Part shown: one piece after another, positions 56 to 25,764 of the stretch
How the letters are laid out: each line of letters opens with the position of its first letter
Numbering within the stretch: position 1 is the stretch's first letter
From: a virus
Virus genome (UHGV): UHGV-0116607
Reading direction: 5' to 3' (one strand)
Length of the DNA stretch: 25,764 nt
Notes under the pieces: generated by a model
Told to the model about the DNA's origin: nothing
Databases searched by the model: none
The model's input: only the letters and a program-made list of their open reading frames with translations
Program-made: the position numbers and the translations under genes

Positions 56-373
56 ATGGCTAAACGTATGCAAGATAAAGAAAGCATTGCCGGAGTGTCA
101 TGGCTGATAGTCCTTGCTCTGTCATGCTGGGGCGGCCTGGTCCGATACCTTATTGACGTTAAGCAGAACAAAGCCGCCTGGAGCTGGGTCAATGCGCTGG
201 CGCAAATTGCAGTGTCCGGCTTTACCGGTCTTATTGGTGGCCTAATCAGCGTTGAAAGCGGGCTTAGCCTTTACATGATCCTGGTTACTTCTGGTATCAG
301 CGGGGCGATGGGGTCCGTGGCACTGACGTACTTCTGGGAACGACTGACGGGGATGAAGAATGCAAACCAGTGA
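56..373 (+). CDS. Holin (class I-like, three predicted transmembrane segments)
   Basis: 105 aa; GGAGG ribosome-binding site 5-9 nt upstream of ATG; three hydrophobic stretches; N-terminus MAKRM has two in-frame Met separated by Lys-Arg (dual-start-like); sits immediately upstream of and overlaps the endolysin gene. Confidence 0.6.
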   Translation: MAKRMQDKESIAGVSWLIVLALSCWGGLVRYLIDVKQNKAAWSWVNALAQIAVSGFTGLIGGLISVESGLSLYMILVTSGISGAMGSVALTYFWERLTGMKNANQ

Positions 374-19867: not shown

Positions 19868-20196
19868 GAACCTACGGCAGGAATTCAGATGGTAAGTGGA
19901 CTCTGGTCGAAACAGATGAGAATGGATTCAACGACGCGGTTTACCTGACTACTCTGGTGCAAAATCTTAAGCTTGCGCCGCAGGAGTCTCCGTTCTTCGC
20001 GAACAATGGTATTCCGGCTAACGGATCAGTAATACAGCAGGTATTGCCGACGTATTACGTTAACCGTCTGCAACAACAATTTAGTCCCTACTTTTCATCG
20101 CTACAAATTGCTTTGGTTAGTGATGATCCACCTGTTTATAACATTTCGGCGATAACCAACGCCGGTTCTAAAATTATCACAACGGTGAACGTATGA
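19864..20196 (+). CDS. Small baseplate wedge protein (gpW / gp25-like, putative)
   Basis: 110 aa; ATGA overlap; size and position between spike and J-like genes. Confidence 0.4.
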   Translation: MRTYGRNSDGKWTLVETDENGFNDAVYLTTLVQNLKLAPQESPFFANNGIPANGSVIQQVLPTYYVNRLQQQFSPYFSSLQIALVSDDPPVYNISAITNAGSKIITTVNV

Positions 20197-21611
20197 GTGA
20201 TTTGTCCGTTAGCTATGACGCAGCCGGGCCAGTGCCGAAAACATCCGAAGAGCTGCGCGCCGACTTAGTTTCAAGAGCCACAGAATTATCACCAGGCATC
20301 ACTACGGACCTCCCCGGATCACTTATCGAGGATATCGTCGGTACCGATGTTGGCGCGCTACTCATTGCCGATCAGATTCGTGTCGACCTCATCAACTCCG
20401 TAGGCCCGCTGAAAGCCAATATGTACATGCTGAACCTTCTGGCCCAGCAGTCAGGTATCAGCGAACAAAAAACTCAGGGGGCGACAACTGTACCTGTCGT
20501 GTTTGAGGGCCCGGTCGGCTTCGTAGTGTCACAGGGGTTTCTGGTCAGCGATGGCACGTATACCTACCAGATCGCCGATGCGACAGTGGTGCTGTCTTCC
20601 GGTGTCAGTTCGATGGTAACAGCCATTGCAACAAACACTGGTTCGTGGGCTGTACCGGTAGGATCGGTTAATCAGATACTGACCAGCCTGCCGTCTGGCA
20701 TTACTCTGACCTGCACCAACCCGGTTGCTGGCACCCCAGGTGGTGCGCCTGAAACTAACTTCGAATTTCGCGAGCGCGTCTGGGAAGCTCAGATGTCGAC
20801 TGTTCAGGGATATCCAGGCTTTATCCGCCAGAAATTGACAGACCTGAGTAATGTCCAGGCTCGTCTGGTTTCCGTTGTTCAGAGCGGTAATGCCTGGATT
20901 GTTATGTGTGGCGGCGGCGATATCTATGAGATGGCCGGGGCCATTTATAAGTCAGCCGGCGACATCAGCAGGCTAAAAGGGACTGACCTGAACGTCACCG
21001 GGATCACCAATGCGAACCCAGGAGTAGTAACGACCGACATCACGCACGGATTCAGCTCTGGCCAGGTAATTAATATCGCAGGTGTTACCGGCATGAGCGG
21101 GATTAATAACGTCCCTCTCACTATAACCGTGTTAAGTCCACATACTTTCTCAATAGGCATCAATACCACCTCGTCAGGCGCATGGACTGGTGGTGGAATA
21201 GTTACGCCGAACCTGAGGAATAATGTGGTTACGGTCAACGACTGGCCAGATAACTACCTGATACCGTTTGTTATACCATTTCAGCAACTGGTGACTATCA
21301 AGTTTCAGTGGGCAACCGAAAGCGCGAACTACCTGACAGACGCGACAATAGCCTCTCTGGTGACGCAACCGGTAATCAATTATGTAAACGGGATATTCGC
21401 AGGAAAGCCGATGAATATAAATAACGTCAAAGATGTCTTTCTTCAGGCGATTAACAGCACGCTCGATATGAGCCTGATTTCGACACTGAACGTTATTGTT
21501 ACGGTGAATGGTGTAATCACAGGAGTGGATGCCGGAACTAACATTATCAGCGGCGACCCTTACAGTTACTGGTTCATTGCCTCTGACGGGGTTATCGTGG
21601 ACGGGATATAA
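20193..21611 (+). CDS. Baseplate J-like protein with Ig-like insertion (putative)
   Basis: 472 aa; ATGA overlap; position in V-W-J-I order; contains the shared …HGFSSGQVINIAGVTGMSGINN…TFSIG… domain. Confidence 0.45.
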   Translation: MSDLSVSYDAAGPVPKTSEELRADLVSRATELSPGITTDLPGSLIEDIVGTDVGALLIADQIRVDLINSVGPLKANMYMLNLLAQQSGISEQKTQGATTVPVVFEGPVGFVVSQGFLVSDGTYTYQIADATVVLSSGVSSMVTAIATNTGSWAVPVGSVNQILTSLPSGITLTCTNPVAGTPGGAPETNFEFRERVWEAQMSTVQGYPGFIRQKLTDLSNVQARLVSVVQSGNAWIVMCGGGDIYEMAGAIYKSAGDISRLKGTDLNVTGITNANPGVVTTDITHGFSSGQVINIAGVTGMSGINNVPLTITVLSPHTFSIGINTTSSGAWTGGGIVTPNLRNNVVTVNDWPDNYLIPFVIPFQQLVTIKFQWATESANYLTDATIASLVTQPVINYVNGIFAGKPMNINNVKDVFLQAINSTLDMSLISTLNVIVTVNGVITGVDAGTNIISGDPYSYWFIASDGVIVDGI

Positions 21612-21612
21612 T

Positions 21613-22317
21613 ATGCTTGAAGATATCATTAAGTCTTACTTGTATACGCAGTATAACGACGATGATGATCTCCAGGCGTTCGTCACTGCGTATAACTCCA
21701 TGGCCCAGGAAATTTATTCATGGATGATTAACGCCAACCTTCCGATATTTGTCGGAGGGTATAATGCTGGTGACCAGTTAAAATGGATTGCCCGCGGGAT
21801 TTATGGCGTTAAGCCGCCGGTGCTGGTCAGTGGGAAGCGAACCGTTTACGGCCCTTACAACGCCGTCCTGTTCAACCAGTTACCATTCAATGGCAGAAAG
21901 GTAGTTAATCAGTCAGAGCAGGTTGTCGTTTCAGATGATCTTTTTAAGCGCATCATGACGTGGAATTTCTACAAAGGTGATGGGTATTACTTTACCATCC
22001 CATGGTTAAAGCGTCGGATAATGAGATTTCTTACCGGGGTTGATGGCGTTGACGTCGTTAACGATCAGAGGTGGAGTATTTCGGTTCTTTTTTCTGATTC
22101 TGGAGCGAGCATATCGATCATCAAAGGGTACAGGAAACTCACCGATGCCTCCATGTTCAATAACTTTTCCTACAATTCACAGACGCTTAATCAGAAGAAA
22201 AGCCTTCTGATAAAAAGTACGAACTACGAATATGCATCATTGTTCAAACAGGCCTTTGATAGCGGCCTGCTTCATATGCCATTTTATCAGCCTGTTACCG
22301 TAACCATTATCGGCTAG
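21613..22317 (+). CDS. Baseplate / tail-fibre-proximal protein (gpI-like, putative)
   Basis: About 234 aa from ATG 21613 (one nt after the upstream TAA); the ORF track's longer 21529 start would overlap the J-like gene by 83 nt. Confidence 0.4.
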   Translation: MLEDIIKSYLYTQYNDDDDLQAFVTAYNSMAQEIYSWMINANLPIFVGGYNAGDQLKWIARGIYGVKPPVLVSGKRTVYGPYNAVLFNQLPFNGRKVVNQSEQVVVSDDLFKRIMTWNFYKGDGYYFTIPWLKRRIMRFLTGVDGVDVVNDQRWSISVLFSDSGASISIIKGYRKLTDASMFNNFSYNSQTLNQKKSLLIKSTNYEYASLFKQAFDSGLLHMPFYQPVTVTIIG

Positions 22318-22555
22318 AGTTATCCCGGCGATCTATTGCCATGTCAGTGTAATACTTAAGACACTGGCATATAACAAGCAACATGATAATGGTAAAGAAC
22401 AGAGCGGCGCTGAACTTTATATTTTCAAATGGTGGGATTCCTTCCTGAATCCACATGTTGAAGATTAAAGCAATAAGGAAAGCCGAAAGCAAAATTGTTA
22501 TTGCGCTAACTGATGATAAAAGAAATTTTGTAATAGCAACTGACAGATTATTCAT
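22307..22555 (-). CDS. Small hydrophobic membrane protein (82 aa, two predicted transmembrane helices), opposite-strand accessory gene
   Basis: Only clear minus-strand gene outside the invertible segment; markedly AT-rich; GAGAGGG ribosome-binding site before ATG; hydrophobic stretches LLSSVSAITILLSAFLIALIF and ALFFTIIMLLVICQCL; extended -10-like TGgTAAAAT about 30 nt upstream on the minus strand. Confidence 0.5.
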   Translation of the reverse strand: MNNLSVAITKFLLSSVSAITILLSAFLIALIFNMWIQEGIPPFENIKFSAALFFTIIMLLVICQCLKYYTDMAIDRRDNSSR

Positions 22556-22583
22556 TCTGAAGCCCTCTCTAAAGTTTAATTAA

Positions 22584-22592
22584 TTTTACCAC
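22584..22592 (-). promoter_or_regulatory. Extended -10 promoter element (TGgTAAAAT) for the small membrane-protein gene
   Basis: Minus-strand TGGTAAAAT, about 30 nt upstream of the ATG at 22555; no good -35 hexamer, consistent with an extended -10 promoter. Confidence 0.3.
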
Positions 22593-22597
22593 TAAGA

Positions 22598-22621
22598 ACC
22601 CGCCTTGAGCGGGTTTTTTGT
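22598..22621 (+). terminator. Intrinsic terminator immediately upstream of the tail fibre gene
   Basis: ACCCGC-CTTGA-GCGGGT hairpin followed by TTTTTTGTT; about 20 nt before the tail fibre ribosome-binding site (GGAGGA). Confidence 0.55.
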
Positions 22622-22642
22622 TGCCCAAATCCCGGAGGATAA

Positions 22643-23593
22643 ATGGCACTCACACTTTTAGCTGCCAACAATGCGCAGACTGTGCTGGCGGCAGGAATTA
22701 GCGCATCAGCAACTTCTTTGACTGTTAACTCAGGAACCGGATCACTGTTTCCTGCGCCATCAGACGGAGTAAGTTTTTTTAAGTTAACCCTGATTGATGC
22801 GGCAACCGGGCAACTCACCGAAATCATGCATGTAACCGCGCGCACTGGTGACACCATGACGATCGAACGCGGCCAGGAGGGAACGACAGCCCGCGCATGG
22901 TCAGCGAATGATATCGCAGCAAACATGATGACCGCCGGCACTCTTAACTACATCCTGGACAATTTTCAACCCTTAGATGCAACCCTAACGGCATTGGCTG
23001 GGCTGGCAACCGGTGCAAATAAACTCCCGTATTTCACTGGAACTGATACAGCTGCGCAGACTGATTTAACTTCTGTTGGCCGTGACATTATTGGGAAAAA
23101 TACTATTGCTGACATTCTCACATACCTTGGTTTGGGAGAAGGTTCGGCATTACCCGTTGGTGTGCCTGTCCCGTGGCCTTCCGCCACTCCGCCAACAGGC
23201 TGGCTGAAATGCAACGGGGCTGCTTTTTCGGCTGAAGAATACCCGGAACTGGCAAAGGCTTACCCGACAAATAAATTGCCTGATTTACGCGGTGAATTTA
23301 TTCGTGGCTGGGATGACGGACGTGGTGTGGATGCCGGGCGACAATTATTATCTTCACAGGGGGATGCAATAAGAAATATTGAGGGATTCGCAGATGGCGG
23401 GATCGGCATGTCTTTTGATGCAATCAGAGGGGCTTTTTACGATGCAGGAACACGATCAGCGACAATGGCGAATAACACAACTGCTATAGGCAAAACCGAT
23501 GACCTTGGATTCGACGCCTCTCGTGTCGTGCCAACAGCTAATGAAAACCGTCCACGTAACATCGCCTTTAATTATATTGTGAGGGCTGCATAA
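22643..23593 (+). CDS. Tail fibre protein (constant N-terminal part + invertible C-terminal variable part with tail-collar-like domain)
   Basis: 316 aa; GGAGGA ribosome-binding site; C-terminal region has the tail-fibre collar signature (…GWLKCNGAAFSAEEYPELAKAYP…LPDLRGEFIRGWDDGRG…); a hix/gix-like recombination site lies within the coding sequence at 23115-23140. Confidence 0.8.
   Translation: MALTLLAANNAQTVLAAGISASATSLTVNSGTGSLFPAPSDGVSFFKLTLIDAATGQLTEIMHVTARTGDTMTIERGQEGTTARAWSANDIAANMMTAGTLNYILDNFQPLDATLTALAGLATGANKLPYFTGTDTAAQTDLTSVGRDIIGKNTIADILTYLGLGEGSALPVGVPVPWPSATPPTGWLKCNGAAFSAEEYPELAKAYPTNKLPDLRGEFIRGWDDGRGVDAGRQLLSSQGDAIRNIEGFADGGIGMSFDAIRGAFYDAGTRSATMANNTTAIGKTDDLGFDASRVVPTANENRPRNIAFNYIVRAA
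23115..23140. repeat. Left recombination site (hix/gix-like 26-bp site) inside the tail fibre gene
   Basis: TTCTCACATACC-TT-GGTTTGGGAGAA: two 12-bp half-sites around a 2-bp core; 15 bp (23127-23141) is a perfect inverted copy of 24944-24958. Confidence 0.6.
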
Positions 23594-24186
23594 TGAAACC
23601 TGTTTTTGATGAAAATGGGCTGGCTACAGTACCGGGTAATATGCGTTGTTTTTATTATGAGGCAGTTACGTATGAATATACTGGCTGGTCTGATGAATAT
23701 ATTAATACTGGCGTAAGTATGCCCGCCTGTTCCACTGGTATTGACCCGGGCGAATACATTCCGGGAAGAGTGGCAGTATTTACGGGTAAGGGATGGAGCC
23801 ATGAAGAAGACCATCGCAATGAGACTGTTTACTCAACAGAAAATGGCGTAGCTGTTACAGTGGATTATATCGGTGCCATCAAAGACGGTTATGTCACGCT
23901 TTCACCGTTAACGCCATACGATAAATGGGATGGTGAGAAATGGGTGACGGATACCGAGGCACAGCATAGCGCCGCACTAGACGCGGCAGAAGTAAAGCGC
24001 CAGTCGCTGATTGATGCTGCAATGGCTTCCATCAGTCTGATTCAGCTGAAATTACGGGCCGGGCGGAAGCTGACGCAGGCAGAAACCACCCGACTTAACG
24101 CTGTGCTGGATTACATTGACGCGGTGGAGGCAACAGATACCAGCCCCGCGCCTGATGTCATCTGGCCTGAACTGCCGGAGGCGTAG
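23593..24186 (+). CDS. Tail fibre assembly protein (U-like)
   Basis: 197 aa; TAATG overlap with the fibre gene stop; C-terminus …LDYIDAVEATDTSPAPDVIWPELPEA matches the conserved tail-fibre-assembly C-terminal signature. Confidence 0.75.
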   Translation: MKPVFDENGLATVPGNMRCFYYEAVTYEYTGWSDEYINTGVSMPACSTGIDPGEYIPGRVAVFTGKGWSHEEDHRNETVYSTENGVAVTVDYIGAIKDGYVTLSPLTPYDKWDGEKWVTDTEAQHSAALDAAEVKRQSLIDAAMASISLIQLKLRAGRKLTQAETTRLNAVLDYIDAVEATDTSPAPDVIWPELPEA

Positions 24187-24597
24187 GCCATTCAATATCT
24201 GGCGCACTGGAAGTATCGACCAGTTCCAGTGCGCCAGATAATCCAGCCACAAATTATATTGCACCAGTTCCTCACCTTTCAGGCGACCAATCGCCGCTTT
24301 ACCAGGCCATTGCTTACTGTTTATGTATTCGTTGACCTGATTAATCAATTGCTGCTTTTTCAGTTCGGCTGCGGCAATTTGTTCCTCATGAGTTGGCGGT
24401 GGAATATCAATCCATGCAGGCATTCCGTCGATGACACCTCTGTATTTTCCTTCTGGTGCTTCCTTCATAAATTCGGCGGCAACAGTGTCGTCAATTTCGA
24501 TTCCATCATCGGGCCATTCGCCGGATTCCTGATAAGCGATTTTAAGCTCCACAGGGAAAAACGCATTTTTATCGGCACTGAAAATATATTTCTGCAT
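24052..24597 (-). CDS. Alternative tail fibre assembly protein (U'-like); apparent frameshift near the 3' end (possibly a pseudogene or homopolymer sequencing error)
   Basis: ATG at 24597; as read the frame runs to 24052, but the conserved C-terminal signature LELVDTSSAPDIEWPTPP is encoded in a different frame (encoded at about + 24180-24225, stop near 24160); a single missing G/C at about 24234-24235 would restore a product of about 145 aa. Confidence 0.5.
   Translation of the reverse strand: MQKYIFSADKNAFFPVELKIAYQESGEWPDDGIEIDDTVAAEFMKEAPEGKYRGVIDGMPAWIDIPPPTHEEQIAAAELKKQQLINQVNEYINSKQWPGKAAIGRLKGEELVQYNLWLDYLAHWNWSILPVRQILNGLRLRQFRPDDIRRGAGICCLHRVNVIQHSVKSGGFCLRQLPPGP
24196..24240. repeat. 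17-bp perfect inverted repeat with 11-bp spacer at the convergence point of the two tail fibre assembly genes
   Basis: TATCTGGCGCACTGGAA (24196-24212) … TTCCAGTGCGCCAGATA (24224-24240); lies just downstream of the U-like stop and inside the 3' coding region of the minus-strand U'-like gene. Confidence 0.7.
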
Positions 24598-24599
24598 TT

Positions 24600-24958
24600 C
24601 TACCGTCCTATCGAAATATAACTGAATCTGTATTGCTGTGAGATATCACTGGTTGCCACACGCCACGCTGAATTACTGATATGTTCAAAATTTACAGACA
24701 AAACCTGCGGGGCAGGACTCGACGGGTCTGACTGAACGGCATCAGACATAACACTGACTGAAACCATCGGCTGATTAGGGAATGGTATAGGGAAGTGTCC
24801 ACTGATAAAGCGGGTCGTGTTTCCTGAAAAAGTGCCAAACTGAACAATATATCCACCTGGTAGCCTGAACCATCCCGAACCAGAAGCGAATGCTCCCATA
24901 TCCGGTATCTGATTATCTCCTGTGCCCACATCCCTTTTCGCCGCTTCTCCCAAACCAA
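24600..24958 (-). CDS. Promoterless alternative tail fibre C-terminal cassette (S'v-like), expressed only after inversion
   Basis: Minus-strand ORF in frame with the fibre constant region across the recombination site (…GLGE|AAKRDVGTGDNQIPDMGAFASGSGWFRLPGG…); stop 2 nt before the U'-like ATG; no start codon or ribosome-binding site of its own. Confidence 0.6.
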
Positions 24959-24970
24959 CCTTTTTTATAA
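24945..24970. repeat. Right recombination site (hix/gix-like 26-bp site) upstream of the invertase gene
   Basis: TTCTCCCAAACC-AA-CCTTTTTTATAA; from memory closely resembles the hixL-type consensus; inverted relative to the left site. Confidence 0.6.
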
Positions 24971-25000
24971 CCATCAAAAATCTGGTGATGCTTCGCCGTT

Positions 25001-25023
25001 TCTCCTGTTTTCATAACAGGAGA
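25001..25023 (+). promoter_or_regulatory. Hairpin / palindrome covering the invertase ribosome-binding site
   Basis: TCTCCTGTT (25001-25009), loop TTCAT, AACAGGAGA (25015-25023); the 3' arm contains the Shine-Dalgarno AGGAGA, 7 nt upstream of the ATG. Confidence 0.4.
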
Positions 25024-25029
25024 AATCCC

Positions 25030-25578
25030 ATGATTTACGGTTATGCCCGAGTATCAACAAACCACCAGGACACTGAATTGCAACTAACGGCGCTCAAGTC
25101 AGCGGGTTGTGAGAAAATTTTTGAAGAGCATGCCAGCGGGAGGAAATCGAATCGGCCGGTTCTAAAACGGCTGATCGCCACTATGCAGCCGGGGGATGAA
25201 CTGGTGGTCTGGAAGCTGGACAGGATAGGCCGCAACGTTCTGCATGCGCTGTTGATGTTCCAGCAGTTACAGGAAAAGGGTATCAACTTCCGCAGTATTA
25301 CCGATGGCGTGGATCTCAAAACAGCCAGCGGCCGCTATAACTTTCGTAACATCCTTTCCGCAGCACAATATGAATCTGATCTTAATAGCGAACGTACCTT
25401 AGCAGGGCTGGCCGTAGCCAGGGCAAAAGGGCGAGTTGGTGGTCGCAGGCCTAAGTTCACGGATGAGCAATGGCGGGAAATGGGGGAGCGGATGGCAACC
25501 GGTGAATCACGACAAAGCGTATCAAAAACGTATGGAGTAGGGCTCTCAACTCTGTATAAAAAGTTTCCAGCTAGCTGA
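25030..25578 (+). CDS. Site-specific DNA invertase, serine recombinase (Hin/Gin/Pin/Cin family)
   Basis: 182 aa; N-terminus MIYGYARVSTNHQD with the catalytic Ser in the resolvase/invertase motif; C-terminal helix-turn-helix (…SVSKTYGVGLSTLYKKF); adjacent to the invertible segment. Confidence 0.9.
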   Translation: MIYGYARVSTNHQDTELQLTALKSAGCEKIFEEHASGRKSNRPVLKRLIATMQPGDELVVWKLDRIGRNVLHALLMFQQLQEKGINFRSITDGVDLKTASGRYNFRNILSAAQYESDLNSERTLAGLAVARAKGRVGGRRPKFTDEQWREMGERMATGESRQSVSKTYGVGLSTLYKKFPAS

Positions 25579-25599
25579 TAACGGGAAAGAAACAGAGAA

Positions 25600-25640
25600 G
25601 GGCACAAATATTGTGTACTTTAATGTGCCCTTTAATTTAT
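25600..25640 (+). terminator. Putative terminator after the invertase gene
   Basis: GGGCACA-(17 nt)-TGTGCCC followed by TTTAATTTATT; long loop, so moderate confidence. Confidence 0.35.
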
Positions 25641-25764
25641 TGATTGGTGGTTGAATTGTTCGTAACTTTTTGATTTAAGTGCAAATTTCTAATAAATTAG
25701 AACACTTTCTTAAAAGACTTTCTCTTCCAGAACTTCTCTAACCTGTGTTATTATTAACACAGAT

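Follow-up and report, generated by a model that had tools for sequence, protein, structure and literature searches.

A probable serine-invertase switch between two tail-fibre tips at the right end of a yciI-adjacent myovirus prophage

Near the right end of the viral genome UHGV-0116607, a stretch of 25,764 nucleotides (nt) hereafter denoted the window (a complete metagenomic contig, ERZ651884 NODE_981, at 4.4x coverage), a tail fibre gene is followed by silent gene fragments in the opposite orientation and by a serine DNA invertase gene, which raises the question of whether these parts form a working switch of the fibre tip, as a first-pass annotation had proposed. Our analysis supports a functional serine-invertase switch of the e14/Mu (Pin/Gin) kind, in which one constant fibre shaft receives, in turn, a collar-type and a gp53-like receptor-binding tip, a reading to which we give a probability of roughly 0.9. 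It is carried by the anatomy of the segment, the in-frame fusion that inversion creates, homology to the P segment of e14, and natural variants that show both orientations and break at the repeat. The coordinates of all features are collected in Table 1.

The two 15-nt arms of the repeat, at 23127-23141 (TTGGTTTGGGAGAAG) and 24944-24958, are perfect reverse complements with 1802 nt in between, in agreement with the first-pass annotation, and they are unique: the 15-mer has only these two copies in the window, even at one mismatch, and matches to the repeat were found in none of the dinucleotide-preserving shuffles (0/100). The 26-bp sites to which the arms belong have a 12+2+12 geometry, inverted orientation and matching cores, as do the sites of Hin, Gin, Cin and Pin; the cores here are TT and AA. 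Beyond the inner half-site and the 2-bp core, the left and right sites have only one base in common; the outer half-sites are unlike (TTCTCACATACC on the left, TTATAAAAAAGG on the right), and the earlier description of an inverted 26-bp copy is accurate for the inner half-site and core but not for the outer half-sites. The left site lies inside the tail fibre gene, and homology to shared cassettes begins at it. The right site lies partly in non-coding DNA, its 3′ end being 59 nt from the invertase ATG (25030); the equivalent distance is 54 nt in Mu and 53 nt in e14.

Inversion of 23127-24958 in silico gives an uninterrupted, in-frame open reading frame (ORF) of 280 amino acids (aa), with the junction ...LGLGE/AAKRDVGTGDNQIPDMGAFASGSGWF... 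reproduced exactly as it had been predicted. The N-terminal part of the fibre (Sc) is constant and expressed in both orientations; its homologues number 855 at E<=1e-20, and among the best 120 a variable C-terminus follows an LGLGE-type junction in nearly every case. Between the sites, two tip-plus-chaperone gene pairs converge, Sv-U facing S′v-U′, and the silent tip S′v is held in a minus-strand ORF of 125 aa (24600-24977) whose start lies outside the segment. The two tips, one a collar domain (PF07484) and the other a Gp53-like_C domain (PF21882), give no significant alignment by BLASTP and are, to judge from their sequences, unrelated, as the first-pass annotation had held. The second assembly gene that it had described is present as a Caudo_TAP gene, although frameshifted in this contig.

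The invertase, which is encoded outside the invertible segment, is collinear with the Gin structure 3UJ3 over residues 1-181 (E=1e-56) and has the make-up of a small serine recombinase, a Ser-nucleophile catalytic domain followed by a C-terminal helix-turn-helix. Ser9, Arg7, Arg42, Asp64, Arg65 and Arg68 are all present and essentially invariant across 114 members of its subfamily; the gene is intact, and the loss of the catalytic Ser, which had been named as a sign of an inactive enzyme, is not seen. A shufflon, with its Rci tyrosine recombinase and multiple sfx sites, more than two repeats that yield several segments, does not describe this locus, where the recombinase is of the serine type and the repeat has two copies. 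The protein is 100% identical to Escherichia coli WP_000639140.1, and its populous subfamily, taken at an identity of at least 79%, extends over Escherichia, Citrobacter, Klebsiella, Enterobacter, Salmonella, Serratia and Morganella. An NCBIfam search with the invertase returned no specific invertase family, only sub-threshold matches to XisF, Mpi and Ccr.

Table 1. Features of the fibre switch region, in window coordinates (for the control residues, amino acid positions of the invertase)
Feature	Position	Strand	Description
Tail fibre ORF (Sc+Sv)	22643-23593	+	316 aa; Collar domain aa 173-220
Sc, constant N-terminal fibre part	22643-23140	+	aa 1-166; ends ...LTYLGLGE
Left crossover site	23115-23140	+	26 bp, TTCTCACATACC-TT-GGTTTGGGAGAA; crossover dinucleotide 23127-23128
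Sv, variable tip currently expressed	23141-23593	+	150 aa; phage tail collar domain PF07484, E=3e-15
U, chaperone for Sv	23593-24186	+	197 aa; Caudo_TAP full profile, E=3e-26
U′, second chaperone gene, frameshifted	24052-24597	-	Caudo_TAP matched only at profile positions 2-111 of 131
Perfect 17-bp palindrome, 11-nt spacer	24196-24240	unstranded	just 3′ of U stop, within U′ frame (minus strand)
S′v, silent alternative tip	24600-24944	-	114 aa plus stop; Gp53-like_C PF21882, E=3e-9
Right crossover site	24945-24970	+	26 bp, TTCTCCCAAACC-AA-CCTTTTTTATAA; crossover dinucleotide 24957-24958
Invertase mRNA leader hairpin	24998-25026	+	12-bp stem pairing Shine-Dalgarno AGGAG, 7 nt before ATG
Serine DNA invertase	25030-25578	+	182 aa; Resolvase PF00239 (E=4e-39) and HTH_7 PF02796; outside invertible segment
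Invertase control residues (window numbering)	50, 103-111, 150-154	+	alignment with subfamily, Gin and PinE

Relatives of the segment are found in both orientations. Matches to the cassette occur in 4453 of 5426 complete E. coli genomes, starting at window positions 23115-23127 and stopping at 24958-24965, and the match to phage SKA5 (OR670062; 97.3%) covers exactly 23127-24958. E. coli strains in which the gene for WP_000639140.1 adjoins yciI differ in their tail modules, of which there are at least four kinds; the cassette beside the gene stands in the window orientation in EM18-18-42, PCP06171 and TC24, and is flipped in 21AR0133, ES5 and WEM25. When the E. coli genomes were queried with the 251-nt right-junction sequence and, for the other state, with a synthetic flipped junction, 41 genomes had the window orientation and 27 the flipped one. 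Among 80 IMG/VR loci with the invertase subfamily, the proximal site was present in 65, with a consensus equal to the right-site sequence of the window and, in most of them, with a distance of 71 nt from its core TT to the ATG (range 70-86 nt); 44 also had the partner site, usually 1.8-1.9 kb off. Here, too, both states were seen, 17 loci having the collar tip fused and a gp53-like tip silent, and 8 the reverse.

The breakpoints are sharpest in two pairs of IMG/VR prophages in which the flanks are nearly identical and the middle is inverted: L023 and L025 (flanks 99.9% and 99.8% identical) and L027 and L037 (99.1% and 99.8%). The overlap between collinear and inverted blocks is, in both pairs, the 15-nt repeat. 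The fusion predicted for the flipped window is likewise represented, as S′v+U′ half-cassettes of the window type (97.7-98.7% identical) joined to an Sc in metagenome contigs L094 and L097, as a window-like Sc joined to the start of S′v in L095, and as an Sc-S′v fusion in P0095 (S′v 82% identical). An exact-pattern scan for the flipped left junction found none in GTDB genomes and matched six metagenome contigs. Taken together, these natural variants indicate, if indirectly, that inversion occurs at these sites. Two loci considered as flipped isomers were rejected, P0001 (as an isomer of the same prophage) for being non-invertible, and L013, which is invertible but has two gp53-like tips.

An alternative explanation of the repeat starts from the left site, whose sequence recurs in the Sc genes of relatives L001, L010 and L006/L007. 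It is found base for base in a non-invertible relative that has no invertase (L006/L007), and the LGLGE motif that it encodes is a common module junction in fibre genes; the inverted repeat could then be the by-product of two fibre fragments that both carry the coding motif, a recombination scar on which the invertase is inactive. We regard this as highly improbable, since the right site is partly non-coding and sits at a fixed 71 nt (core TT to ATG) in most of the 65 IMG/VR loci, the natural variants are clean inversions ending at the repeat, and the identical repeat is an experimentally verified crossover in e14 (PMC12529663, PMC4272514). The presence of the left site in non-invertible relatives does mean that the left site alone is just conserved coding sequence. 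Encoding the ...LTYLGLGE junction, it evidently also acts as a point of module exchange.

Some observations nonetheless weigh against a working switch in this particular element. The evidence for inversion comes from natural variants in relatives and not from the element itself. The closest relatives of Sc are mostly non-invertible fibres of Sc plus a gp53-like tip, such tips being found in almost all of the best 120 Sc homologues, and in the nearest of them, P0001 (99% identical), a single chaperone and an identical left site are present but an invertase is missing. The outer half of the right site (...AAAAGG) deviates from the ...AAACC of the other half-sites. Finally, a frameshift in U′ takes away the conserved C-terminal region implicated in chaperone trimerisation (PMC9608196).

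This frameshift bears on what the flipped state could do. U′ is without one A between 24233 and 24234, seen as a 1-nt gap in alignments with L001, L002, L004 and L005, and all 16 of the 16 relatives carrying the motif keep the A. The shift occurs 25 codons ahead of the normal stop, turning the conserved end DALELVDTSGAPDIEWPTPPAVQAR into 60 unrelated residues; the canonical stop would be at 24158, giving 146 aa. The e14 type of cassette calls for two intact chaperone genes, which the window, with this 1-nt deletion, does not have. Because U′ is frameshifted, the alternative state is perhaps unproductive here; unless the deletion arose in assembly of the contig, the fibre made after flipping would probably be poorly assembled.

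The palindrome that overlaps the deletion (Table 1) is informative in this respect. It is perfect because the deletion removed the A that formed the only bulge of a quasi-palindrome; identical arms with this bulged A still in place are seen in L097, the closest relative. The deletion therefore looks like a templated quasi-palindrome correction (a template switch) and, being apparently templated, may be a real mutation; it may also be an assembly error at 4.4x coverage. If it is real, the segment could still invert whilst the switch is half-dead here, with only the collar/U state infectious and the flipped state a dead end or decaying remnant, a version of events that we consider a little short of an even chance. 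It gains from the conservation of the A in all 16 relatives with the motif, from the position of the lost base, which as the only bulge fits a template-switch mutation better than a random read error, and from the trimerisation and fibre-assembly role proposed for the conserved C-terminal domain of Tfa proteins (PMC9608196). It loses from the low coverage, at which the deletion could be an artefact of assembly, and from the intact state of the remaining parts, with an invertase 100% identical to the copies that stand beside both orientations.

If the switch is functional, as we favour, its chemistry would follow that described in the literature for Gin and Hin. Dimers of the 182-aa serine invertase would bind both 26-bp sites, which would be brought into synapsis and cleaved at the central TT/AA via Ser9; half of the complex would then rotate by 180 degrees before the strands are religated, leaving the 1,832 bp from 23127 to 24958 inverted. 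In the present orientation the late operon would express Sc with the collar-type tip (Sv; 316 aa in all) and the chaperone U, and after inversion Sc would be fused in frame to the gp53-like tip (S′v; 280 aa in all), followed by the chaperone U′. A lysogen population would in this way give rise to particles with two receptor specificities, and an effect on host range is to be expected by analogy with Mu, P1 and e14. We infer that the element is currently active.

How the invertase is controlled is a separate matter, and its residues were compared in Hin numbering (window residue = Hin − 1), those of Gin and PinE being taken from fetched records and the numbering itself from what we take to be the Hin sequence. 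The Fis/enhancer dependence of Hin is documented, and the contacts, made by Gln151, Arg154, Leu155 and basic residues at 47, 48 and 51, are reported to be conserved in Fis/enhancer-dependent invertases (PMC3798978). Positions 151/154/155 are Q/R/L in Gin and PinE, and E/E/R in the window enzyme, being variable in its subfamily; K47 and R48 are retained, and position 51 is Ala in the window and A, T, G, D or S in the subfamily, never basic. The Fis-contact residues of the classical invertases are thus largely missing from the window invertase. The same holds for helix E, in which residues Phe104-Phe105-Phe106-His107...Met109 lock the inactive dimer, and where the F105N substitution is reported to make Hin Fis-independent and hyperactive (PMC4513852). 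In all 114 subfamily members this helix reads Y104-N105-F106-R107...I109...A112, compared with F-F-F-H...M...L in Gin and PinE, and Phe106 is the only one of residues 104-107 and 109 to be retained.

The Fis-dependent recombinational enhancer that the first-pass annotation had suggested seeking in the 5′ coding region of the invertase is represented by degenerate candidates, but an enhancer itself was not confirmed. Such an enhancer has a pair of Fis sites spaced by about 48 bp. Candidates of the degenerate form G-N13-C can be placed at +22 and, 48 bp apart, at +82/+130, in register with comparable candidates in gin and pinE, whilst the position equivalent to gin +71 has lost both anchor bases. 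We gave these candidates no weight as evidence of an enhancer, the motif being degenerate and overlapping conserved codons (IFE motif). Synonymous-site conservation did not differ between codons 5-45 and the rest of the invertase gene (0.53 versus 0.55, p=0.35), in a comparison that had no positive control. With the Fis-contact residues not conserved and the candidate sites unconvincing, this invertase may or may not depend on Fis.

A different element of control may reside in the leader of the invertase mRNA, which forms a hairpin (dG -16 kcal/mol, z = -4.0) over the Shine-Dalgarno sequence. The hairpin is kept across the invertase subfamily, with one compensatory change of a U-A to a C-G pair, and a few divergent members have another hairpin at the same leader position; upstream of gin and pinE it is absent. 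It is possible that the hairpin acts as a translational throttle. On a wider view, the invertase might represent a large enterobacterial Pin-like subfamily with pix-type sites, the control of which is perhaps unlike that of Hin, Gin, Cin and Pin, in that there is no Fis-contact patch and no basic residue at 51, residue 105 is Asn, and a hairpin sequesters the Shine-Dalgarno sequence instead. We hold this view only tentatively and think it rather unlikely; if true, it would make the enzyme a Din-type invertase that naturally works without Fis or an enhancer. An Rfam scan of 22000-25764 gave nothing relevant, and promoter and terminator scans gave counts not above those of shuffled sequence.

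The prophage that carries the switch at its right end is that of a temperate myovirus and is integrated beside yciI. Upstream of the switch, the late operon encodes terminase, portal, head, sheath, tape measure, and baseplate hub and wedge proteins of a myovirus, and its DNA is ~80% identical to that of Klebsiella phages RothC, RothD and Chronis. Downstream of the invertase gene, a stretch of 136 nt (25579-25714) is 97-99% identical to E. coli DNA and leads into yciI at its 3′ end; a comparison of four loci (L001, L002, L005 and L013) gave 97-99% identity over this stretch. A module made up of this invertase, right site and leader stands beside yciI-tonB (window 24944-25714; L002, L003, L004, L005, L010 and L013) and ends at least four tail types: an e14-like GP46/J/YmfQ myovirus, one with a DUF2612 baseplate, a lambdoid TipJ siphovirus, and the E1_FCCH baseplate type of the window. 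It is either a right-end module that these phages share, or a resident remnant with which incoming phages recombine. The last 50 nt of the window (25715-25764) depart from E. coli yciI 18 nt into the gene and end in a short palindrome, TGTGTTATTATTAACACA; possible explanations of this divergent end are a further insertion, an allele from a different host, or an artefact of the contig end.

Several other features of the neighbourhood were noted. Between the last baseplate gene and the fibre gene (22307-22640) there is an 82-aa minus-strand ORF without family match, and a GC-rich stem followed by a T-run on the plus strand (~22596-22620), just before the S start codon, which the consensus terminator scan did not flag; in the closest relative (L006) the equivalent interval holds an arc/mnt/ant cluster like that of P22 immI. 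At residues 275-338, the baseplate J-like wedge protein (20193-21611) contains an inserted domain resembling the FCCH domain of the ubiquitin-activating enzyme E1 (PF16190, E=1e-14), and RefSeq names the wedge homologue of E. coli TC24 after its FCCH-like domain. TC24 (L001, NZ_CP171637.1) is the sole complete E. coli genome with the same prophage type, at 92% identity, and its fibre gene (L001, 3348-4025) is annotated as a pseudogene missing the N-terminus.

Fibre inversion switches have been textbook matter since Mu G, P1 C and e14 P, and are systematically catalogued (PMC4272514, PMC9881135); with the cassette present in thousands of E. coli genomes, the discovery value of the present example is small. 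It is of use for annotation, where silent gene fragments are to be read as the off-state of a switch: in RefSeq, one record of such fragments is described as 'missing N-terminus', and another has them as free-standing proteins. Two points may interest specialists, namely an invertase subfamily without the Fis-contact signature of the classical enzymes, and the recurrence of one yciI-adjacent invertase/cassette module behind four or more unrelated tail modules, which shows the crossover site in a second role, that of a module-exchange junction.

The comparison with e14 also brings up a different purpose for the switch. In e14, the protein StfE2 is reported to block adsorption of T2 after an inversion driven by PinQ/PinR (PMC12529663), and in the present orientation ORF 24600-24977 might be its analogue, making the switch a host phage-defence device rather than a phage host-range device. 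The architecture is e14-like, StfE2 likewise has 125 aa and a C-terminal gp53-like domain (PMC12529663), and possible starts for the ORF (TTG/ATG) lie in frame within the region of the outer half-site. However, the ORF has no BLAST similarity to StfE2, no Shine-Dalgarno sequence at a usable distance (the sole AGGAG is ~27 nt upstream) and, by consensus scan, no promoter-like site upstream, and the full late operon in the window argues for a functioning phage and not a cryptic remnant. We therefore think a defence role improbable, and keep to a switch of the fibre tip.

With regard to known systems, the e14 P segment is the closest relative of the window segment. In e14, a cryptic prophage of E. 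coli K-12, the repeat TTGGTTTGGGAGAAGG flanks a 1797-bp P segment (PMC12529663); the window repeat matches it at 15 of 16 bases, the e14 repeat being the window repeat plus one base, TTGGTTTGGGAGAAG(G), with the same inner half-site and TT core. The segments are alike in length (~1.8 kb; 1797 bp versus 1802 bp between the window arms) and in layout, each having two convergent tip-plus-Tfa pairs flanked by the repeat, one collar-type and one gp53-like (stfP-tfaP / tfaE-stfE in e14, with PinE), and the invertase gene just outside. At the amino acid level, Sv is 60% identical to the variable part of StfE, U 61% to TfaE, and U′ 47% to TfaP. Direct observation of e14 inversion in cultures has come from read mapping with polymerase chain reaction (PCR; PMC4272514) and from genome sequencing with quantitative PCR (PMC12529663), and the P segment is also flipped by PinQ and PinR (PMC12529663). 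The two differ in that the window invertase has an identity of only 54.9% with PinE (its identity with Gin is 51.1%, whereas PinE and Gin share about 78%), Sc is unrelated to the N-terminus of StfP, and S′v has no BLAST similarity to the StfP tip. Moreover, the window holds an apparently complete myovirus late region beside yciI, whereas e14 is a decayed element in icd, and the leader hairpin that sequesters the Shine-Dalgarno sequence has no counterpart before pinE.

The Hin/Gin-type label of the first-pass annotation is apt as regards a serine-invertase switch, but the closest relatives are Pin and the e14 P segment, with Hin and Gin further removed. The G segment of Mu (Gin) and the C segment of P1 (Cin) share the logic of Sc/Sv-U versus S′v-U′, the serine invertase downstream and 26-bp sites of 12+2+12. 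The Mu segment differs in being ~3 kb long, with 34-bp repeats and a GA/TC core, and its Gin, 51% identical to the window invertase, has Q151/R154/L155 where the window has E/E/R, and F104/F105/H107/M109/L112 where the window has Y/N/R/I/A. In the flagellar switch of Salmonella, Hin belongs to the same recombinase class and its hix sites have the same geometry, hixR having a degenerate outer half-site that ends in GG, like that of the right site here, but Hin flips a promoter, whereas the window segment swaps coding C-termini. Also close are phage SKA5, with a cassette 97.3% identical over 23127-24958 and an invertase of the same subfamily, and the yciI-adjacent E. coli prophages, with an identical invertase and a right-site region and leader that are identical or near-identical (96.7-100%). 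SKA5 and these prophages have Sc and baseplate modules unlike those of the window, and in SKA5, WEM25, 21AR0133 and ES5 the segment is flipped relative to it.

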